NCBI GenBank assembly: GCA_937876905.1
Contig: CALEFI010000003.1
Span: 6,541 to 70,540, forward strand
Length of the DNA stretch: 64,000 nt
Direction: 5' to 3'
Source of the DNA: an uncultured Treponema sp.
GTDB lineage: Bacteria > Spirochaetota > Spirochaetia > Treponematales > Treponemataceae
The first letter of the stretch is position 1. Each line of letters begins with the position of its first letter. Below are positions 1 to 9,206 of the stretch, piece by piece. Below the pieces are notes generated by a model. It worked only from the letters and a program-made list of their open reading frames with translations, did not search any database and was not told where the DNA came from. A program made the position numbers and the translations under genes.

Positions 1-734
1 ACAATTTCTGCAATATCATGTAGCTCTTCTCGAGAATAACGATTAAAATCAATACAAGCATCAAACCTACGTAGTAATGCCTTGTCAAAAGAATCAAAAA
101 GATTTGTAGTTGCAATCATTACGATTTGGTCATTTAGATTATCCATTCCTTTTAAAACGGCAGAGGTAGCACGTCCCATTTCTCGTAAATCATTAGAATT
201 TGTTCTATCCAACGCAATTGAATCAATCTCATCAAAAAGAATAATCATTCTTTCAGGATGGACAACAGAATTAAGTTGGCAAAAAAGATTTGATATATTT
301 TTTGCTGTTTGTCCCAATTTACTATCAATTAAGTTATCAAAATCAACAACATATAATTCTCTAGAAAGAATACGAGCAATTTGTTTCACAGTTTCTGTTT
401 TTCCAGTACCGGGAGCCCCATAAAAAAGGTATTTATTAATTCCGACATTTTGTCCAATTGCATTTACGATGCCCAAAATATCATTTTTAATAATTTCCGG
501 AAGCGGTAGAGGTTCCTTTGAATATTCAATTCTATGTAAAAAGGAATTCTCATACTCATTCATTTGAGGAACAAAGGTATTTGCTTTAGAAAGAAGAGCC
601 ATGATATATTCTGCAAGTTCTCTATCTCCCGAAGAATTAAAATCATTTGCAATTGCATAGGCTTCATCTCTAAAAGAAACATCATTTCCTTCTGCATAGT
701 ATTTAATGAGATTGATTACATTTTTCTTTTTCAT
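1..734 (-). CDS. Classical AAA+ ATPase (FtsH/CDC48-type module after a ~100-aa N-terminal domain); 3' end runs off the window
   Basis: My reverse-strand translation starts at ATG 734 (MKKKNVINLIKYYAEG...), preceded by AAGAGGTG. Motifs: Walker A YGAPGTGKT, Walker B MIILFDEIDS, sensor-1 ATTN, ALLRRFD. It is absent from the ORF track because no stop lies in the window. The plus-strand ORFs 82-423 and 564-761 are antisense to it. Confidence 0.8.
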   Translation of the reverse strand, partial: MKKKNVINLIKYYAEGNDVSFRDEAYAIANDFNSSGDRELAEYIMALLSKANTFVPQMNEYENSFLHRIEYSKEPLPLPEIIKNDILGIVNAIGQNVGINKYLFYGAPGTGKTETVKQIARILSRELYVVDFDNLIDSKLGQTAKNISNLFCQLNSVVHPERMIILFDEIDSIALDRTNSNDLREMGRATSAVLKGMDNLNDQIVMIATTNLFDSFDKALLRRFDACIDFNRYSREELHDIAEI

Positions 735-754
735 AAGGTCACCTCTTATATGAA

Positions 755-783
755 AGTATAGCATACTAGGGACAAATTTACAA
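755..783 (-). promoter_or_regulatory. Putative sigma70-type promoter for the AAA+ ATPase gene
   Basis: On the minus strand: TTGTAA (783-778), 17-nt spacer, TATACT (760-755), about 20 nt upstream of the RBS and ATG. Confidence 0.35.
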
Positions 784-816
784 CATTTGGGACATTACTA
801 TTTAATATAAAAAATA

Positions 817-845
817 TTGACGATTGATTCTAATTTTTGTATATT
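817..845 (+). promoter_or_regulatory. Putative sigma70-type promoter for the small-ORF transcript
   Basis: TTGACG (817-822), 17-nt spacer, TATATT (840-845). This predicts a ~180-nt leader before ATG 1033. Confidence 0.4.
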
Positions 846-883
846 CAGGATGTATGTATAATACTGAGGAACGTCGTTCCAAT

Positions 884-953
884 AAAAAACCTCAGGCGGC
901 AACCTGAGGTAATAAAAGAAACATCTGACGGGCAGATATTTTCATAAAAAAAT
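884..953 (-). ncRNA. Candidate ~70-nt cis-antisense sRNA opposite the leader of the small ORF
   Basis: Minus-strand promoter-like TTGTAT (989-984), 17 nt, TAGAAT (966-961). There is an internal 5-bp hairpin (ATCTG/CAGAT around 923-937). A GC-rich 7-bp hairpin CCTCAGG-6nt-CCTGAGG (909-890) is followed by TTTTTT (889-884) on the minus strand. No minus-strand ORF here could use that terminator. Confidence 0.3.
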
Positions 954-1032
954 ATGAATGATTCTATCAGTTATTCCTTGAAAATACAACCCATACAGAT
1001 GTTTCCTACTTCATATAAAAAGGAGGAAGCTT

Positions 1033-1206
1033 ATGGCAAAAAATCCACCTGTTGGTGACAACCGTAGAAATGGTGCTGTTCGCAAGCGTTCACAAGTTTT
1101 GAATCCCAAAACGAAACAGTATGTGAAACGTGATGCTGAAACAGGCCGTTTTGTGGCTGTCAAAAAAGATGGAACACCATTTAAAGGTGTCAGAAAAGAA
1201 AAGTAA
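1033..1206 (+). CDS. Small, highly basic hypothetical protein (57 aa)
   Basis: AAAGGAGGAAGCTT-ATG at 1033. Translation: MAKNPPVGDNRRNGAVRKRSQVLNPKTKQYVKRDAETGRFVAVKKDGTPFKGVRKEK. It has 17 K/R residues of 57 and no hydrophobic segment. It falls below the ORF-track length cutoff. Confidence 0.6.
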   Translation: MAKNPPVGDNRRNGAVRKRSQVLNPKTKQYVKRDAETGRFVAVKKDGTPFKGVRKEK

Positions 1207-1219
1207 TTTTCTTATTTTC

Positions 1220-1265
1220 TCTCCCTTGCAAATTCAATAATAGCAAGGGAGAAATTTGTATTTTT
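1220..1265 (+). terminator. Intrinsic terminator/attenuator-like hairpin between the small ORF and the caspase gene
   Basis: 10-bp stem TCTCCCTTGC (1220-1229) / GCAAGGGAGA (1243-1252), followed by AATTTGTATTTTT. Confidence 0.5.
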
Positions 1266-1277
1266 GAGGAGAATAAT

Positions 1278-2246
1278 ATGGGACGAAAAGCTCTCGTAAT
1301 TGGTATTGATAATTATCAAACTGCACCTTTACACGGTTGTGTAAATGATGCAAAAGAAATCGCTTCTTTGTTAAAAAATAATGAAGATAACTCTAAAAAC
1401 TTTGATGTTCGTCTTGAATTAGATATTCAAAAAAAGGAAGAACTTTCAGATGCAATACAAGCTTTATTTAAAGGAGACGATGAAATTGCATTATTGTATT
1501 TTTCCGGACATGGAACAACAAAAGATGATGGTGAGTATCTCTGTACTCCAGACTACACACCTAATTATCCAGGCGTAAAACTATCCGATATTTCTACATG
1601 GATAGTTAATTCTAAATGTAAAAATAAAATTATTATCTTGGACAGTTGTTTTTCAGGAGGAATGGGTAATAATCCGATTATGGCAGACTGTGCAGAACTT
1701 GCTAAAGGAGTTACTATTCTGACAGCAAGTAAAAGTACAGAGTATTCTGTTGAATGTAATGGGCATGGCATTTTTACTTCTCTTTTGATTCAAACATTAA
1801 AAGGTAGTGCTGCCGATTTACTTGGCAATGTAACTATTGGCTCAATCTATGCCTATATTGATAAAGCTCTTGGACCTTGGGAACAAAGACCAGTATTCAA
1901 AACAAATGTTCATGAATTTGTTTCACTTCGTAAAGTAAAAGCTCCCATCGATTGTAAAGATTTGAAAACATTAAAGGATTTATTTACAAATTCGAAAGAA
2001 GAATTTCCTTTAAATCCTTCTTTCGAATTTACTAATAATCCAAAAGAAAAGCATTCTTATACGAAACCATATGCAACAGAAGAGAATGTTGAGAAGCTAA
2101 AACTATTACAACGCTTAGAACGAGTTGGACTTGTAGAGCCTGTTGATACCGAACATTTGTATTTTGCTGCAATGGAGTCAAAGTCGTGTAAATTAACAGC
2201 CTTAGGGCAATATTATCTTTTGCTTGCTCAGAAGGAAAGAATATAA
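1278..2246 (+). CDS. Caspase-like (peptidase C14 / metacaspase-fold) protease with an unassigned ~100-aa C-terminal domain
   Basis: The N-terminus ALVIGIDNY, His in LLYFSGHG (His78) and Cys in IIILDSCFSGG (Cys124) match the caspase catalytic dyad layout. RBS GAGGAG lies upstream. Confidence 0.85.
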   Translation: MGRKALVIGIDNYQTAPLHGCVNDAKEIASLLKNNEDNSKNFDVRLELDIQKKEELSDAIQALFKGDDEIALLYFSGHGTTKDDGEYLCTPDYTPNYPGVKLSDISTWIVNSKCKNKIIILDSCFSGGMGNNPIMADCAELAKGVTILTASKSTEYSVECNGHGIFTSLLIQTLKGSAADLLGNVTIGSIYAYIDKALGPWEQRPVFKTNVHEFVSLRKVKAPIDCKDLKTLKDLFTNSKEEFPLNPSFEFTNNPKEKHSYTKPYATEENVEKLKLLQRLERVGLVEPVDTEHLYFAAMESKSCKLTALGQYYLLLAQKERI

Positions 2247-2256
2247 GGAGAGAGAA

Positions 2257-2643
2257 ATGAAAAAGAGAGCATTTATTAGTTTTGATTACGATCATGATTA
2301 TGATATAAAACAATGTCTTGTTGGTCAGGCAAGAAATCCTGATTCACCTTTTGAAATTATTGACATGTCAATAAAAGAACCTATCAGTTCCAATTGGAAA
2401 GAAAATGCTAGACAAAGAATCAGAAGGTGCGATGTTGTTGTTATTTTGTGTGGTGAACATACAGATACAGCATCAGGAGTAACAGCAGAATTAACAATTG
2501 CTCAAGAAGAAGGAATACCTTATTTCTTACTTCGAGGACGTTCTAATAGACCTTGTGCATGGCCTAATCATCGATATTCGACTGACAAGATGTACAATTG
2601 GACATGGGATAACCTAAAACTGCTGTTTCCAGGAGCGAGATAG
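2257..2643 (+). CDS. TIR-like protein (DUF1863 / ThsB-type)
   Basis: MKKRAFISFDYDHDYD..., then CDVVVILCGEHT and SGVTAELTIA (conserved Glu). ATG 2257 with RBS AAGGAG lies 10 nt after the caspase stop. The track ORF start at 2224 overlaps the caspase gene and was not used. Confidence 0.8.
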   Translation: MKKRAFISFDYDHDYDIKQCLVGQARNPDSPFEIIDMSIKEPISSNWKENARQRIRRCDVVVILCGEHTDTASGVTAELTIAQEEGIPYFLLRGRSNRPCAWPNHRYSTDKMYNWTWDNLKLLFPGAR

Positions 2644-2645
2644 TC

Positions 2646-3122
2646 ATGAAAGTTTTTATCTCTCATCAGCAAAATGACTCAGAAATAGCAACACAAACAT
2701 ACAGAGAATTACAGTCATATAATGTGAAAGCTTACTTGGATGTTTTTGATAATGCTCTTGTTTCTAATAGTCAAGCACTAACTGAACATCTAAAAAGTAT
2801 TGTTAGGAAAAGTTCTGATATTCTAGTCGTAATGTCAGACAGAACTAAGTTATCTTGGTGGGTTCCATTTGAAATAGGAATTGCTGCAAATCAAGATTTA
2901 CCAACAGTAACTTATTTACAAAACTATGTCACTTTACCTGAATATCTAGATTATTGGCCACGATTGAAAAATCTATCAGATATTTCAAAATATGTTGCAG
3001 CAAGAAAAAATCGTTTACAAGAAGAAAATGTTCGCAAAAACTTAGACTCCTCTGTAGAAATGTTTAGTTATAAACCTTCCACAACAGAAGAATTCTACAA
3101 GAACTTAAAAGCTATGTTATAG
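2646..3122 (+). CDS. TIR-domain protein (TIR_2-like)
   Basis: MKVFISHQQNDSEIA..., DILVVMS, and SWWVPFEIG (W..E motif, Glu76). Starts 2 nt after the stop of the upstream TIR-like gene. Confidence 0.8.
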   Translation: MKVFISHQQNDSEIATQTYRELQSYNVKAYLDVFDNALVSNSQALTEHLKSIVRKSSDILVVMSDRTKLSWWVPFEIGIAANQDLPTVTYLQNYVTLPEYLDYWPRLKNLSDISKYVAARKNRLQEENVRKNLDSSVEMFSYKPSTTEEFYKNLKAML

Positions 3123-3132
3123 TAAGAACCTG

Positions 3133-3176
3133 TCTCTCTTAAAAACTTAACAAACTTTTAAGAGAGATATTTTTCT
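3133..3176 (+). terminator. Intrinsic terminator of the caspase/TIR operon
   Basis: 12-bp stem TCTCTCTTAAAA (3133-3144) / TTTTAAGAGAGA (3156-3167), followed by TATTTTTCTT. Confidence 0.55.
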
Positions 3177-3199
3177 TAGATAAACGATAATTTAGCAGC

Positions 3200-3286
3200 C
3201 TAAACCTGAACAGAATTTACATCTATTTCCCCACTCATCAACTTTGGTAGTAAAGTATCACGGAGAGAAATCAATCGTTCGTTTTC
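3200..3286 (-). pseudogene. Relic of an hsdS 3' end (last ~28 codons plus stop)
   Basis: Minus-strand translation ENERLISLRDTLLPKLMSGEIDVNSVQV* compared with the intact HsdS C-terminus ENIRLTQLRDTLLPKLMSGEIDVESVKI* (5571-5657). No upstream coding continuation. Confidence 0.6.
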
Positions 3287-3316
3287 ACAGACATTGTTGT
3301 AAATATGTTCTGTATT

Positions 3317-5503
3317 TTATTTTTCAAATGAACCAAATAATTCTTCTATATCTTGAAAATCAGAGAAATGTTCCTCAAACTCATAATCGTCTCTATCATA
3401 ATTTTCTTCCATTTCTTTTTCTTCTTTCTTTTCGAATAACTCAGTTAATGTATTTAAATGGACATCTGAAATAGGAAAACATAATTTTTCTAGATTCTCA
3501 AAAGATTCTTGAATTTGTTGAACATCATATGAACTTGAACCTGTATCAGAAGCCCAATCCATATCATTTTCTATACTTTTATTAATTATTTCATTTTTTA
3601 TTTTTTCAGGAAGAAAATTAATTTTTTCATTAATATGTAAATATAATAAACATTCTTCTGTCGTATCAACTTCTTTAAAATCTTGAAAAAGTTTTTCTTT
3701 CACATCGTCGGTAAATGATTGTATTGGAAAATTTATCATAATGTCTGTTAATGAAGAATTTAATTTTTCACCTTTAAGAAAAACATCTAAAACAGTATTA
3801 CAGAAAGATTGTTTTAGTTCTTTTAATTGATATTTTTCGATATATATTGAAATTAAACTAAGTCTTGATGTTTTTGATTTATAAGAACTACCTGTATTAT
3901 TTTTTCGTAGAGATTCATAGAAAATATTTTCACACAGCGAGTTTAAAATTCCAATCTTTTTGTCCTTTCCTATTATGTCATCTTTTAAGACATAGATTTT
4001 TTGATCCCAATATAATTGTTTTAAATCAAAAAATTCAGGTTCGATATCTTGATTTTCTGAAATTTTACCCTTTATATAATCAATCAAAGATGGATTATGA
4101 AATGAAATAAAGTTTTCATTCCCTTTCTTAGAAATTACAATAAATGAATTTTCTAGTTCACTTAGAGATTGATTAAATATATCTGTAAATTCACTTCTAG
4201 ATAGCGACGGATTACTTTTATTTAACCATAAGAAAGAAATCTTCCTTAAATCATCAATATAAATATTATCATTCAAAAAATAGAGGGTATATAAAATATA
4301 TTTACATTCTCGACTAATATGTTGATTAAAAGCTTTATCCCATATTTTCTTCGGATGATTTAAATTTGCTATAAAGCTCTTATAGTAATTTTCCGGACTC
4401 AAATTCTCATACTCACGAGCTCCTGTTTTTGTCATCCATTCTATTAATCGAGGAGAATAATTCTGATGATTGATAATTTTATTATATCGCTTATCTTCTA
4501 TTATAAATTTGCAGAAATTAACGGGAACATTTGAGAAATACAAGTGATTATATAAAATTTGAGCTTTTTGAAATGGAGAGTAATCAGATAATTTTAACAC
4601 TGATGATTTACCATCAAGAGAAGATAGCTTTTCACTCTGTTGTATACCTTGGTTAAAAATATATTCTCTTGTTGTTAAGATAAACTTTGTAGATTGGTTT
4701 AAAATTTGCAAAATTTTGGTATAATCATCAAACTCTCCTTTTTCTTCAAACTGTGTTGCCCCAAGAAAATCATCATAATAGAAAATTTGCTTTTCGTCTT
4801 TCTTTAAAAGATTAAAAAAATCTTTCAATTTTCTTATTTGTATAAAAGTATAACCAGATTTACAAAAATATAAGCAAAGCATTTCAGCCATAGTAGTTTT
4901 ACCGATTCCAGGGATTCCTGAAATAATACAAAAAAAGTTTGATTTTAATAAATTAATAGCTTTAGAATAATAATCATTTTTTACCCATAGTTTTATTTTA
5001 TCAGACCATATTTCTTTCGTAATTTCAGAACGTGTATATAAATCACTATGAATAATTCTTTCTAAAACAGAAGCACTATCCATCCATAATTTTGGATGCC
5101 TTTTTTCAATTTCTGGATATTTTGATAAGATTGAATTAATTGCAACAGAATCTATAATATCATCAGATTCAATTGGAAACTCAGAAAAGATTTCCAAAAT
5201 ACTATCTTTATTTGCTGCAGTAAGACTTAAAGAGGTTACAATTATATATTTAGATGGAGAAAGTTTTTTGAGTTTTTCTACTTCTGCTTTCAACCCTGAC
5301 TTCAATTGAGTAATACCAGATTTTTCATAATGTTTACATTGAACAATAATTCTATCATGACTCTTGAAACAGCGTAAATCAATTCCACCATCTCTACCTG
5401 ATGTAAAACTTTCAAACTCTTTTTGATATTTTGTTTCAACAATACTTTTTGCTAATTGTTCAAAATCAAATGGAGATAAATTTTGAAATGTATAATTTGG
5501 CAT
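3317..5503 (-). CDS. Mrr-like restriction-endonuclease domain fused to a STAND/NACHT-like P-loop NTPase with a helical C-terminal region (Avs-like)
   Basis: N-terminus SGRDGGIDL...IIVQCKHY (D...QxK nuclease motif). Walker A ISGIPGIGKTT and Walker B IFYYDDFLG. About 330 aa of C-terminal helical region with an acidic tail. ATG 5503 with RBS GAGGAGG; the track start at 5539 lacks an RBS. Confidence 0.8.
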   Translation of the reverse strand: MPNYTFQNLSPFDFEQLAKSIVETKYQKEFESFTSGRDGGIDLRCFKSHDRIIVQCKHYEKSGITQLKSGLKAEVEKLKKLSPSKYIIVTSLSLTAANKDSILEIFSEFPIESDDIIDSVAINSILSKYPEIEKRHPKLWMDSASVLERIIHSDLYTRSEITKEIWSDKIKLWVKNDYYSKAINLLKSNFFCIISGIPGIGKTTMAEMLCLYFCKSGYTFIQIRKLKDFFNLLKKDEKQIFYYDDFLGATQFEEKGEFDDYTKILQILNQSTKFILTTREYIFNQGIQQSEKLSSLDGKSSVLKLSDYSPFQKAQILYNHLYFSNVPVNFCKFIIEDKRYNKIINHQNYSPRLIEWMTKTGAREYENLSPENYYKSFIANLNHPKKIWDKAFNQHISRECKYILYTLYFLNDNIYIDDLRKISFLWLNKSNPSLSRSEFTDIFNQSLSELENSFIVISKKGNENFISFHNPSLIDYIKGKISENQDIEPEFFDLKQLYWDQKIYVLKDDIIGKDKKIGILNSLCENIFYESLRKNNTGSSYKSKTSRLSLISIYIEKYQLKELKQSFCNTVLDVFLKGEKLNSSLTDIMINFPIQSFTDDVKEKLFQDFKEVDTTEECLLYLHINEKINFLPEKIKNEIINKSIENDMDWASDTGSSSYDVQQIQESFENLEKLCFPISDVHLNTLTELFEKKEEKEMEENYDRDDYEFEEHFSDFQDIEELFGSFEK

Positions 5504-5513
5504 TTTTTCCTCC

Positions 5514-5570
5514 TCACAACTCCACCCCAATCTTCCCACTCATCAACTTTGCCAACAAAAACTCGTGGAA
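5514..5570 (-). pseudogene. Second degenerate relic of an hsdS 3' end, directly after the intact hsdS stop
   Basis: Minus-strand translation FHEFLLAKLMSGKIGVEL* resembles LLPKLMSGEIDVE. It shares an exact 17-nt core, CCCACTCATCAACTTTG, with relic 3200-3286. Its stop codon overlaps the RBS of the STAND gene. Confidence 0.5.
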
Positions 5571-6728
5571 TTATATTTTAACAGATTCAACATCTATTTC
5601 TCCAGACATAAGTTTTGGCAAAAGTGTATCACGGAGTTGTGTCAGTCGTATATTTTCTTGTTGCTTAAATAAAATTTGTTCATAAATCGATTCAACAATA
5701 TATGTAAATTTTTCAGAGTCAGTATTTGATAAAACGGTAATAGTTTCTGTTTCAAAATCTCTTGTTACAATGGCATCGAAAGTTGCTCCATTTGCTTTAT
5801 ATTTTAAAGAAGAAATCACTTCTAGTGTATAAAAATATGCCAGTAATTGATTGTTATCTTTACCTTTCAATGCATAACATGATTGATTCATAGCCATTGG
5901 TAAGCCTGCAAGACATACTTTGCCGACAGTTCCTCTGGCTGTTACAAAAATAGTATTTACTGGATATAACTTGCTATTGCAGTTTTCTAGTCCATTTTTG
6001 GTTATTGTCTTTTCCGTTATTAAGCAATAAGGATTTCCAACATCCTTGGGGGTAAAGAAAGGAATGTCTCCATTCCAATAATTTTCATTATTTGTTTTTG
6101 GAGTTCCTCCTCCCAAAATATCAATCACATCAGTGAATTTAACTAACTTGGAAGAATTATTTAAAAAACGCTTGAAAATCGCCTGTGCCTGCTGCTCCAA
6201 ATTATCGTTTATCTTATTGTTCAGCTCGATTTTATCGTCGAGGGAAGAAAGTATTGCGGCAATTTTTTGTTGCGTGGCAAGTGGTGGAAGATTGATTGAA
6301 AGATTTGTAACGACATCAGTTTGAACTCTTTGTCGCCCGGAAGAACCAACCATAGATTTTATTGCAGGTTCTCTGATTATAGAACTTGTAATAAGATAAT
6401 ATATAAAATATGGGTCTGAAATATTATCTTTTGCACGAAAAACTATATATTCTGTGGAACCAAAACCGATTTCGTTATCATCAAGAATATTTACCATTGC
6501 AGTTTTTCCATTTTCAAGACAAGGAGTAATTCGAGCCATAATTGTATCTTTATTTCTAAATTTTGCTCCACCAGAATATGCTTCAGTAGAAAAACTTGAA
6601 ATAGAGCGACAATAGGGTTGAAGTATATCCATACCTATTTTTTTTGCGATAGCCCCTTTTTTTATTGATTCTGTTGGATTTATTTCTACAACTTCTCCCA
6701 GCTTACATTCCTTCCAATCTTCTTTCAT
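5571..6728 (-). CDS. hsdS: Type I restriction-modification specificity subunit
   Basis: Two variable TRD halves are separated by the conserved LPPLATQQKIAAILSSLDDKIELNNKIN. The C-terminal conserved helix is LRDTLLPKLMSGEIDV. ATG 6728 with RBS AAGGAG; the N-terminal extension in the track ORF covers a repeat element. Confidence 0.85.
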   Translation of the reverse strand: MKEDWKECKLGEVVEINPTESIKKGAIAKKIGMDILQPYCRSISSFSTEAYSGGAKFRNKDTIMARITPCLENGKTAMVNILDDNEIGFGSTEYIVFRAKDNISDPYFIYYLITSSIIREPAIKSMVGSSGRQRVQTDVVTNLSINLPPLATQQKIAAILSSLDDKIELNNKINDNLEQQAQAIFKRFLNNSSKLVKFTDVIDILGGGTPKTNNENYWNGDIPFFTPKDVGNPYCLITEKTITKNGLENCNSKLYPVNTIFVTARGTVGKVCLAGLPMAMNQSCYALKGKDNNQLLAYFYTLEVISSLKYKANGATFDAIVTRDFETETITVLSNTDSEKFTYIVESIYEQILFKQQENIRLTQLRDTLLPKLMSGEIDVESVKI

Positions 6729-6744
6729 TTTACTACTCCTTTTC

Positions 6745-6781
6745 CCCAGATTTTGCGTAGCAAAATCGAATCCGTGTGGCA
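6745..6781 (+). repeat. 37-nt hairpin-containing repeat, copy A (identical to 19311-19347)
   Basis: CCCAGATTTTGCGTAGCAAAATCGAATCCGTGTGGCA, containing the 8-bp stem / 3-nt loop GATTTTGC-GTA-GCAAAATC. It lies in the hsdM-hsdS spacer, about 20 nt 3' of the hsdM stop. Confidence 0.8.
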
Positions 6782-6801
6782 ATATCCTCACTGGGCACGC
6801 C

Positions 6802-8322
6802 CTATATCTTCCAACCAATTCCTGCAAGGTTTTGCTTAATTTCTTCTTCTAGTTTGTGGCTTTGTTCAAACATTTGGCCTAGTTCTGTTGTAAGGCGGGT
6901 CATTTTTTCATCAAAAGGTTCGGCATCCTCTTCTTTTTCCTCAATTCCGACATAGCGGCCAGGGGTGAGGATGTAGTCTTGTTTTGCAATTTCTTCTGTA
7001 GTAGCAACGGTACAAAAGCCTTTTTGATTTTCTAAGGTTCCGTTTTGGAAGTCTGTAAAGGTTTGTGAAAGACGATTGATGTCTTCTTCAGAAAAATCAC
7101 GGTGCTTGCGGTCTACCATGTGGCCCATGTTTCGGGCATCAATAAACAGGGTTTTTCCAGCTTGCCTCTTATTGCGGCTGATGAACCAGAGGGTCACGGG
7201 AATTGTCACGCTGTAAAAAAGCTGGGTGGGCATGGCCACAATGCCTTCTATCAAGTCTGCCTCGATTATTTTACGGCGGATTTCACCTTCGCCACTTGTC
7301 TGGGTGCTAAGCGCTCCGTTTGCAAGAACAAGTCCGATTTTTCCATTTGGTGCAAGGTGATAAATCATGTGCTCTATCCATGCATAGTTGGCATTTCCTG
7401 CCGGTGGCAGTCCGTATGCCCAGCGGGGGTCGTTCTGCAGCTTGTCCTGTCCCCAGTTGCTCAGGTTAAACGGTGGATTTGCCATGATGTAGTCGAACTT
7501 TTGAGTTGCATGAAGGTCATTGAAAAAGGTGTCTTCGTGGTGCTTTCCAAAGTTTGCATCAATGCCACGGATTGCCATGTTCATTTTTGCCATCTTCCAA
7601 GTGTCAGCATTGGCTTCCTGTCCGAAAACTGAAATGTTGCTTCTGTTTCCGGCATGTTCCTGTATGAACTTTACGGACTGAACGAACATTCCGCCAGAAC
7701 CACAACAGGGGTCATAAACTCGTTTTCCTTCCGTTGGCTTGAGGATGCCAACAATCGTCTTTACGACACTGGCAGGTGTGTAGAATTCGCCGCCCTTTAC
7801 CCCTTCGTAGCTTGCAAACTGTGCGATGCAGTATTCATAAGTACGGCCCAGCAGGTCTTTGCTTGCTTCGGTGTCGCTCATGTCCATGTTGGTAAAGACA
7901 TCCACGACGTTTCCCAGTACTCGTTTGTCAAGTTCTGGGTTTGCGTAGTTTTTTGGGAGCACCCCCTTTAAGCTTCGGTTGTCGTCTTCAAGAGCAAGCA
8001 TTGCTTTGTCGAGAAGGGTTCCAATTTCTGGTGTGTGCGCTGCCTTTGCAATTTCGCTCCAGCGGGCTTCTGGCGGAACAAAGAAGATATTTTCAGCTTC
8101 ATAGGCATCAGGGTCGTCTTCAAATCCATCACCTTCTTCCACCAGCTCGTTATATTTCTTTTCAAATGCAGTCGAGATGTATTTTAGAAAGATGAGTCCA
8201 GTAAAGATTTTGCGGTAGTCTGCAGCGGGAATATGCCCCCAAAGCTCACAGGCCGCATCCCAAATCTGCTGCTCAAAGCCGATTGTTGCAGACGATGATT
8301 TAGGTGATTTTTTCTTTGCCAT
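6802..8322 (-). CDS. hsdM: Type I restriction-modification N6-adenine DNA methyltransferase subunit
   Basis: HsdM N-terminal domain (IWDAACELWGHIPAADY). SAM-binding motif VYDPCCGSGGMF. Catalytic motif MANPPFN. Confidence 0.9.
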   Translation of the reverse strand: MAKKKSPKSSSATIGFEQQIWDAACELWGHIPAADYRKIFTGLIFLKYISTAFEKKYNELVEEGDGFEDDPDAYEAENIFFVPPEARWSEIAKAAHTPEIGTLLDKAMLALEDDNRSLKGVLPKNYANPELDKRVLGNVVDVFTNMDMSDTEASKDLLGRTYEYCIAQFASYEGVKGGEFYTPASVVKTIVGILKPTEGKRVYDPCCGSGGMFVQSVKFIQEHAGNRSNISVFGQEANADTWKMAKMNMAIRGIDANFGKHHEDTFFNDLHATQKFDYIMANPPFNLSNWGQDKLQNDPRWAYGLPPAGNANYAWIEHMIYHLAPNGKIGLVLANGALSTQTSGEGEIRRKIIEADLIEGIVAMPTQLFYSVTIPVTLWFISRNKRQAGKTLFIDARNMGHMVDRKHRDFSEEDINRLSQTFTDFQNGTLENQKGFCTVATTEEIAKQDYILTPGRYVGIEEKEEDAEPFDEKMTRLTTELGQMFEQSHKLEEEIKQNLAGIGWKI

Positions 8323-8391
8323 AGTGCTATCCCTCTGAAAATAAAGTATTCAAAACGATTTGAGGCAATCCCCCAAGCCACGCTCCTAACC

Positions 8392-8454
8392 ACTCCCCTC
8401 ACCCCTCCAGCTGGGCGGAGACCTCCTCCCACTGGGCGGTCAGCTGGTCAATCC
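8392..8454. repeat. Displaced, slightly diverged copy of the ABC-F gene 3' end (att-like direct repeat, left copy)
   Basis: Aligns by eye with 9143-9206 with only a few mismatches and one indel. It encodes ...IDQLTAQWEEVSAQLEG* compared with the genuine ...IDQLTAAWEEVSAQLEG*. Confidence 0.75.
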
Positions 8455-8672
8455 TCCATCTCCGCATCTGGCACTTTTGCCAATACCGCCAGAAATTTAT
8501 CTCGGGAACCCCTTGCACCTCTCTCTTCCAAATACCTCTGCGTTTCCAAGGCAGAAATCTTCTCCGCCACAGCCGATACAATGAATTGATTTATAGAAAT
8601 TTTATCCTTGACAGCAATTTCTTTTATCAATGAATGATATGAATCAGGTAGCCTCAAACTCAGTGTTGTCAT
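8448..8672 (-). CDS. RHH/HicB-family type II antitoxin
   Basis: MTTLSLRLPDSYHSLIKEIAVKDKISINQFIVSAVAEKISALE is a ribbon-helix-helix pattern. Its start lies 1 nt after the PIN gene stop. Confidence 0.75.
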   Translation of the reverse strand: MTTLSLRLPDSYHSLIKEIAVKDKISINQFIVSAVAEKISALETQRYLEERGARGSRDKFLAVLAKVPDAEMED

Positions 8673-8673
8673 T

Positions 8674-9093
8674 TTATCCCTCCATTTCCGCCAGAAATTC
8701 TTTTGGCGTTTGAATTTTTATGCCTAAATCTTCTGCCCGCAGAAAATCCCGTTTATTGTAAGTAATAACCCTTTCCGCTCCTGCACTGATTGCCAGCTCC
8801 AGCACATGGTCATCAAATTGATCCTTCAAATAAGGTCTCCAAAGATAAAATATCTTTGTCTTTATGCCAACTGCACAGAGGTAGTCGATAAAGTCTTCAA
8901 TATCAGAGTCCAAAATAATCCCCTTATCAAGATGATTTTTAAGGACTGCCTCATACTCCAATATCAAAGGAACAGAAACCGCACAATCAAACATTCCAGT
9001 CCCAACTTGTGAAACCAGCTCAAACGCCTTGCCTTTATTGCTTTGCAACGAGGAGAGGATCACATTTGTATCGATTACAATCAAGGGTCTCAC
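8674..9093 (-). CDS. PIN-domain toxin (PIN_3-like)
   Basis: IVIDTNVILSS (N-terminal acidic Asp), ...LEYE..., ...DDHVLELAISAGAERVITYNKRDF, matching the PIN acidic-residue layout. Confidence 0.8.
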   Translation of the reverse strand: MRPLIVIDTNVILSSLQSNKGKAFELVSQVGTGMFDCAVSVPLILEYEAVLKNHLDKGIILDSDIEDFIDYLCAVGIKTKIFYLWRPYLKDQFDDHVLELAISAGAERVITYNKRDFLRAEDLGIKIQTPKEFLAEMEG

Positions 9094-9142
9094 TTATAGT
9101 ATTATATATAATACTATAAGTGGTTGTCAATTTGCATTATCA

Positions 9143-9206
9143 ACTCCCCTCTACCCCTCCAGCTGGGCAGAGACCTCCTCCCAGGCGGCGGTGAGCTGGT
9201 CAATCT
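9143..9206. repeat. ABC-F 3' end, right copy of the att-like direct repeat
   Basis: See 8392-8454. This copy is the functional end of the ABC-F CDS. Confidence 0.75.

Follow-up and report, generated by a model that had tools for sequence, protein, structure and literature searches.

A Mrr-nSTAND3 defence gene between hsdS tail copies in a restriction-modification locus of type I from an uncultured Treponema

Introduction

Recombination at conserved regions of hsdS, the specificity gene of type I restriction-modification (R-M) systems, shuffles target recognition domains (TRDs), as in the type IC and lactococcal systems. In this work we describe a type I locus where the exchanged unit differs in that it includes a non-hsd gene and leaves duplicated tails, that is, copies of the conserved 3′ end of hsdS. 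The locus belongs to an uncultured Treponema sp. and lies in a stretch of 64,000 nucleotides (GenBank assembly GCA_937876905.1, contig CALEFI010000003.1, positions 6,541 to 70,540), which we call the window. The non-hsd gene, here the STAND gene, encodes an Mrr-like nuclease joined to a STAND NTPase.

The closest precedent is the pneumococcal tvr locus (SpnIV). There, tail-end repeats (TER) of ~70 bp guide the recombinase-mediated excision and reintegration of a circle that carries non-hsd genes, and recombination between long repeats also takes place in the absence of TvrR or RecA (Kwun et al. 2018, PMC6265443). As in tvr, direct repeats of ~70 bp derived from the hsdS 3′ end flank non-hsd DNA in our type I locus and mark exchange points; the STAND gene stands between two such copies, relic 2 and relic 3. 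However, the tvr cargo is a toxin-antitoxin pair and the recombinase itself, whereas that of the window is a single defence gene. The downstream repeats of tvr belong to usable TRD cassettes, whereas those of the window are orphan tails, with no tyrosine recombinase encoded in positions 1-9100.

Phase-variable type I loci with several hsdS genes have been described as epigenetic invertons (Huang et al. 2020, PMC7672463; Atack et al. 2020, PMC7394358). The hsdM family of the window resembles these, a full hsdS often being accompanied by half-hsdS genes in inverted orientation and by a tyrosine recombinase, and the window itself retains an inverted pair of cores of the hsdS central conserved region (CR1) and a remnant of a convergent half-gene. 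It differs in that it has no recombinase, no usable second hsdS, and three tails that are all co-oriented. Where an inverton has at least two opposed hsdS genes and inverted repeats, only a 24-nt opposite-strand remnant and the inverted CR1-core pair survive here; this is a relic, not a working locus.

A third line of work concerns defence genes nested in other defence operons. PDC-S73 is a candidate defined by its embedding in BREX, DISARM or type I R-M loci ('guilt-by-embedding'); the origin of the embedding was left open, with only the idea of a 'genomic sink' offered (Payne et al. 2024, bioRxiv 10.1101/2024.01.29.577857). Like PrrC in EcoprrI and the guilt-by-embedding set, the STAND gene is a co-oriented defence gene that appears to be nested in an hsd unit. 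The difference is that here the junctions can be mapped to the hsdS tail, and that no hsdR is visible in the window.

Results

Three hsdS tails and a defence gene

The order on the minus strand is hsdM, hsdS, relic 2, GGAGG, the 728-aa STAND gene and relic 3, which ends at 3200:

6802-8322, minus strand: hsdM, type I methyltransferase subunit, 506 aa (Pfam N6_Mtase 4e-110, HsdM_N 7e-24)
5571-6731, minus strand: present hsdS, intact specificity gene with two TRDs, 386 aa (Pfam Methylase_S 3.8e-42, 2 stretches)
5571-5657, minus strand: genuine hsdS tail, of the distal type ..GEIDVESVKI-stop, ENIRLTQLRDTLLPKLMSGEIDVESVKI and a stop (E=1.7e-17)
5514-5570, minus strand: relic 2, a truncated hsdS tail of 18 codons, FHEFLLAKLMSGKIGVEL and a stop (E=2.2e-4)
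5509-5513, minus strand: Shine-Dalgarno (SD) sequence GGAGG of the STAND gene, read from the sequence; locus L003 has the same behind an intact hsdS
3317-5503, minus strand: STAND gene, 728 aa, Mrr_cat nuclease, nSTAND3 NTPase and helical C-terminal domain (Pfam nSTAND3 2.1e-46, Mrr_cat 5.8e-8)
3200 to ~3304, minus strand: relic 3, a well-preserved hsdS tail, ENERLISLRDTLLPKLMSGEIDVNSVQV and a stop at 3200-3286 (E=1.5e-19, 66.5 bits)

A sequence-only reading of this DNA had proposed three co-oriented copies of the hsdS C-terminal tail here. They are indeed present at these coordinates, all on the minus strand and each terminated by a stop codon. The E-values of the tails come from a profile hidden Markov model (HMM) that was built only from 82 genuine tails of independent loci and searched against the six-frame translation of the 64-kb window, where the next-best match after the three tails has E=1.4. 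A repeat search pairs 3209-3286 with 5580-5657 (71% over 78 nt) and 3225-3246 with 5530-5551 (91% over 22 nt). The exact 17-mer that the two flanking relics had been said to share, CCCACTCATCAACTTTG, occurs only at 3230-3246 and 5535-5551; 0.03 matches are expected by chance, and none of 100 shuffles contained two copies. The similarity of the relics is better than chance in AT-rich DNA, as the independent profile is significant for both.

By profile alignment relic 3 reaches ~3304, roughly 12 nt past the STAND stop codon (3317-3319). The distal 37 nt of relic 2 are cassette-derived, in the sense explained below, and its proximal 19 nt are degenerate. Its TGA (5516-5514) abuts the GGAGG (5513-5509), 5 nt ahead of the STAND ATG at 5503. 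Both relics lie in frame right behind a stop, relic 2 behind the hsdS TAA (5570) and relic 3 behind the STAND TAA (3316), and L003 is alike; this placement could have arisen by chance (about 1 in 9) or could reflect the insertion process.

A shared block with both ends inside tails

The STAND gene is part of a longer block that recurs in contigs of other samples:

3214-5551, minus strand: shared mobile block (the cassette) of distal tail, SD, STAND gene and proximal tail (blastn and junction alignments)

This block (5551-3214, 2340 nt) is 96.7% identical by blastn to L001-L003, contigs from three separate samples. It begins within relic 2 (5551) and finishes within relic 3 (~3214). At its left end in L003 the block coincides with the tail of a different, intact hsdS, whose TGA abuts the same GGAGG; across the left junction identity to L003 is 45/48 at 5504-5551 and 10/19 at 5552-5570. 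On the right side L001-L003 carry a degenerate counterpart of relic 3 (ENERLISLCDTLLQKLMGVEIEV and a stop), and the genes past the junction differ, with GmrSD_N in L001-L003 and TIR genes in the window.

The right-hand junction can be placed with the help of L058, a related locus whose hsdM is 91% identical to that of the window. Across the bins 3316-3287, 3286-3260, 3259-3231, 3230-3200 and 3199-3179, identity to the L003 relic falls (29/30, 23/27, 23/29, 22/31, 13/21), while identity to the L058 tail rises (16/30, 15/27, 21/29, 23/31, 20/21). Moreover, mismatches between relic 3 and the L003 relic (13/73) exceed the synonymous divergence of the adjacent STAND gene (0.062; p=5e-4). From the opposite gradients and the excess divergence we conclude that relic 3 is chimeric: its proximal part derives from the cassette and its distal part from the resident locus, which places the right-hand crossover within relic 3. 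It is thus not merely the original end left in situ, as its proximal part travels with the cassette in L001-L003.

These comparisons also bear on whether the arrangement is real, as the tails might be chance resemblances in AT-rich DNA, or assemblers might have joined loci at shared tail k-mers. In favour of an artefact, the region has 23-34% GC and every comparator is a short-read metagenome contig. However, the profile E-values (1.5e-19 and 2.2e-4) and the 17-mer expectation of 0.03 speak against chance, and the longest exact matches between tails, 11-17 nt, are under the usual assembly k-mers. A mis-join would leave one hybrid tail rather than tandem or flanking tails, the cassette and its relic recur in three separate samples, and a relic of the 3′ end of an ABC-F gene at the inner edge of the surrounding island argues for a real chromosomal insertion. 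An artefact of either kind is therefore highly unlikely.

Companion loci and the position of breakpoints

The signature recurs, with other cargo, in a second locus, L054. Its hsdS is 99% (aa) and 97.8% (nt) identical to that of the window, matching up to ..GATACACTTTT in the protein and ..CGTGATACACTTTT in the DNA (~5621). The two diverge within the tail, between ..ACACTTTT and CCAAA; the distal tail and everything downstream differ. L054 has a tail relic of its own (..WLKLMSGEIDF-stop, 2334-2414), which lies behind a 231-aa gene and is itself directly followed by the SD of an AAA_13 gene. L059 carries the same AAA_13 pair behind an intact hsdS tail, with which the L054 relic aligns (L059 14560-14660). 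In three independent comparisons (with L001-L003, with L054, and of L054 with L059) the switch points fall within a few nt of the P-K-L-M-S codons.

As in TRD shuffling, conserved central and C-terminal segments of hsdS serve as crossover points, and breakpoints in 96 hsd loci pile up at CR1 and the tail. At the tail, ends of matches of at least 90% identity fall 35 times within -70 to +5 and 35 times within +5 to +100, against 0 times within -500 to -100. Per 100 nt there are 57 match ends at CR1, 47 in the tail and 37 just after it, and none within TRD2.

The cargo-bearing hsdS genes are preceded by an EamA-type transporter gene in L003 (3-311) and by an LPD3-domain gene in L054 (1-387), in neither case by hsdM. 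These upstream genes suggest that modules of hsdS plus cargo also exist outside complete hsd operons.

Where the hsdS unit originally ended

To describe the resident side of the right-hand junction three further features are needed:

3181-3199, minus strand: canonical post-stop motif GCTGCTAAATTATCGTTTA (GCYGCTAAATTNTCGTTTA across the related loci), 19 nt, an inverted copy of the CR1 core (motif scan)
6193-6211, plus strand: core of the hsdS central conserved region, coding for ..INDNL.. on the minus strand, inverted partner of 3181-3199 (motif scan)
3180-3203, plus strand: INDNLAA-stop remnant after a stop codon, 24 nt, eight codons, abutting relic 3 (translation; compare ..NRINDNLAA-stop of L061, 7958-8494)

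An hsdM-based scan gave 80 related loci (L056-L135), of which 62 have a tail. Across these related loci the post-stop motif stands directly behind an hsdS tail and stop in 59 cases. In the window it follows only relic 3, neither the present hsdS stop nor relic 2, and it is 20/21 identical to the motif of L058 and L118. The motif at 3181-3199 marks the original terminus of the hsdS unit. We also considered that it might merely be the 3′ end of a convergent gene, and rejected this since it also follows hsdS stops where there is no convergent half-gene. Because it repeats the CR1 core in inverted orientation, it probably serves as the inversion site in the phase-variable loci of this hsdM family.

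According to the sequence-only reading, a related genome without the STAND gene should show a single hsdS end. This is the case in L058, where one hsdS end (KLMSGEINVNSVQI and a stop) is followed by the motif and there is no STAND gene, an empty-site configuration. The proposal that the operon once ended near 3200 is borne out, as the motif follows only relic 3 and L058 has its single hsdS end at this point; relic 3 itself is a chimera with a cassette-borne proximal part.

The family to which the window belongs often has more than one hsdS. A second, half-size hsdS is found in 28 of the 62 tail-bearing loci, usually inverted and with a Phage_integrase gene between the copies; in two loci, L063 and L124, the second copy is direct. 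A tyrosine recombinase is encoded in the relatives L061, L065, L073 and L124. The sequence at 3180-3203 reads as the last codons of a convergent, silent half-hsdS, as in L058 and L061, and on this ground the window locus is a decayed member of the inverton kind. The other proposal of the sequence-only reading, that the locus once carried several hsdS alleles, is thus true of the family and leaves its trace in the 24-nt remnant abutting relic 3. The two proposals, entry by recombination and former multiple alleles, are complementary and not rival.

A decayed inverton also raises the possibility that the tails were never involved, relics 2 and 3 being passive debris of silent hsdS genes and the STAND gene having come by an unrelated illegitimate insertion or deletion. 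Multi-hsdS loci are indeed common in the family (28/62), a convergent half-hsdS remnant lies beside relic 3, orphan tails around cargo are rare elsewhere, and the tandem of genuine tail and relic 2 demands an illegitimate event anyway. Yet passive debris does not account for a ~97% identical block shared with L001-L003 that has both boundaries inside tails, for the graded chimera of relic 3, for the change of partner of the same hsdS within the tail in L054, or for the relic ahead of the AAA_13 cargo there. We find it improbable.

The STAND gene and its relatives

The STAND protein matches the PADLOC profile PDC-S73 over its full length (E=1.4e-138; its residues 1-708 align with positions 1-715 of the 752 in the profile). 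In 33 homologues the residues of Walker A and B (G196-T203 and D244/D245) are invariant. So are D38, D42, Q55 and K57 of the Mrr_cat domain, which we take to be the D..QxK catalytic motif of Mrr. An AlphaFold2 model (pLDDT 81) has Avs4 as its top Foldseek match (8dgf, 2.6e-9), followed by Avs5 filaments, plant NRC resistosomes and Apaf-1; the matches to Avs4 and Avs5 have E-values of 1e-9 to 1e-7 at a TM score of ~0.3, and the C-terminal domain is predicted to be helical. No repeat family was identified in that domain, a PDB sequence search with the protein gave no match, and the viral contigs searched held no relative.

Like Avs4 and Avs5, which are its best structural matches (8dgf, 9jap, 9nc9), the protein joins an effector at the N-terminus to a STAND NTPase and a predicted helical domain at the C-terminus, and nSTAND3 is also the NTPase of Avs5. 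In contrast, its size is half that of Avs4, the identity is only 11-13%, and its effector is Mrr_cat rather than the SIR2 of Avs5. By homology it may act as an Avs-type sensor whose C-terminal helical domain would recognise a phage component; the NTPase would then oligomerise and the Mrr-like nuclease cut DNA. A pN/pS of 0.28 against the 96% identical homologue in L003 indicates that the gene is maintained.

The closest relatives also follow an hsdS, namely P0001 (96%; L001-L003) and P0002 (58%; L004-L007). Three homologues at 40-44% identity sit in other defence neighbourhoods, away from hsd, and none of 35 homologues in reference genomes is beside hsdS or hsdM. The tie to hsd holds only for the closest relatives, and the distant homologues indicate that the STAND gene is independently mobile cargo.

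The gene is co-oriented with hsdS and directly behind it, upstream of the point where hsdS canonically terminates. Co-transcription with hsdMS is probable, because the ribosome-binding site of the gene is the same as that found behind an intact hsdS elsewhere. A promoter and terminator scan of 2900-8700 gave no excess over shuffles, so we make no statement about transcription units beyond the SD.

The surrounding island

Positions 1-9100 have a GC content of 23-48%, the remaining window ~57%. By gene it is 23-28% for the STAND gene, ~33% for hsdS and ~48% for hsdM against ~57% for the host, a sharp step in composition. Relatives of the window hsdM (74-92% identity) are found in gut and rumen metagenome contigs. 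Other features of the island are:

734-1, minus strand: IetA-like AAA ATPase, cut by the left window end, part of the AT-rich island
1033-1206: basic ORF, 57 aa, in the AT-rich island
1278-2246, plus strand: caspase-like gene
2257-2643 and 2646-3122, plus strand: two TIR/ThsB-like genes
8448-9093: HicB-like/PIN toxin-antitoxin pair, adjoining hsdM

Of the type I R-M genes, hsdM and hsdS are intact, and no hsdR was found in positions 1-9100, nor any ORF >827 aa elsewhere in the window; hsdR may sit to the left of the window. Neither the island nor its visible edge shows an hsdR, recombinase or tRNA gene. The final 53 nt of the ABC-F gene occur twice (8401-8453 and 9153-9205, 91%), and the copies bracket the HicB-like/PIN pair, which makes it the second small cassette of the window that lies between copies of the 3′ end of an upstream gene. 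Taken together, we read the locus as a type I R-M module of the multi-hsdS (inverton) kind that has decayed and that lies, within an AT-rich defence island, next to the ABC-F gene of a host of ~57% GC.

Discussion

We propose, with a probability of about 0.7, that a 2.34-kb module was placed inside the hsdS 3′ end by recombination between copies of the conserved tail of ~60-100 nt. The module comprises a distal hsdS tail, the SD, the Mrr-nSTAND3 gene and a proximal hsdS tail. Its left junction is at the K-L-M-S codons (5551) and its right junction within 3286-3200, beyond which the canonical hsdS terminus of the resident family continues. DNA arriving from another hsdS locus may have recombined by homologous or homeologous crossovers, with the downstream tail relic of the cassette as right homology arm and the upstream tail as left arm. 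The junctions lie in tails; that the process was RecA-type recombination is what we infer.

Several observations weigh against this account. From one pair of crossovers within a single recipient tail two tails are expected, and the locus has three; for the tandem of genuine tail, TAA and relic 2 a further event must be assumed, perhaps an illegitimate one or the loss of an earlier cargo. Exact tail matches of 11-17 nt are short for RecA-dependent exchange, and the proximal 19 nt of relic 2 are degenerate where relic 3 is pristine. No empty site of the same species was found, exact-sequence look-ups of the window hsdM and STAND proteins gave no entry, and the comparators are metagenome contigs throughout. 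There are no orphan tails flanking cargo in the 80 hsdM-anchored loci, and L004-L007 have the 58% STAND homologue behind hsdS and no tail relics.

Two other histories were set aside. As a complete account we reject both a plain double crossover and a single integration of the Campbell type into the present hsdS tail, as either predicts two tails, not three. We think it unlikely that the proximal part of relic 2 and the distal part of relic 3 are halves of one old relic, given that one is degenerate and the other pristine. The claim that the STAND gene entered by recombination at the hsdS 3′ repeat stands for the boundaries of the foreign block, which are inside relics 2 and 3, and falls short for the tandem tail, which cannot have come from a single simple homologous crossover.

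The precedent of tvr suggests a different process, in which the cassette was excised as a circle between direct tail repeats and reinserted at another tail by a site-specific recombinase, since lost or acting in trans. The ~70-bp direct tail-end repeats of pneumococcus guide just such excision and reintegration (PMC6265443). Among relatives of the window hsdM, Phage_integrase proteins are encoded between hsdS copies, and two tails are in direct orientation in L063 and L124; furthermore, three breakpoints lie within a few nt of the same codons, between P and KLMSG. However, no recombinase gene is found in window positions 1-9100, in L001-L003 or in L054, the conserved site of the family (the CR1 core and its inverted post-stop copy) is outside the breakpoints, and integration of a single circle likewise gives two tails, not three. 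We consider this route possible, although on the unlikely side. It is rather doubtful that the tail-end repeats are att-like sites of an integron-like cassette platform, served by a recombinase in trans or independent of RecA, through which single defence genes, each with a tail fragment on either side, would be excised, reinserted and so passed between type I loci of unrelated bacteria.

Recombination between tails, our preferred reading, should not be generalised too far. The hsdS tail had also been suggested as a general landing pad for defence cargo, and this we reject as a rule, given the 80 hsdM-anchored loci without an orphan tail beside cargo. Cargo with a tail relic is found only in the window, in L001-L003 and in L054. 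As a side observation, the hsdS genes of L048/L049 (12768) and L090 (15508-15684) are interrupted by a stop in frame or by a frameshift, and these are not orphan tails. The tail is demonstrated as an exchange point for the window and two companions; a general landing pad is not proven.

That PDC-S73-type genes are embedded in type I loci, and that hsdS loci have tail-end repeats, was already known. What is new is the combination, a defence-gene cassette with its junctions mapped inside hsdS tails. Genes nested in R-M, BREX and similar operons serve the discovery of immune systems, and the route of their arrival has been left open in that literature. The locus described here is a mapped example, in which a ~97% identical defence cassette is common to the island of a GC-rich host and to AT-rich contigs, and it hints at such a route. 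At present this is one well-documented case with two companions rather than a rule. If the pattern is wider, defence cargo would be exchanged at a predictable point, the hsdS tail, and past insertions would be marked by orphan tails.

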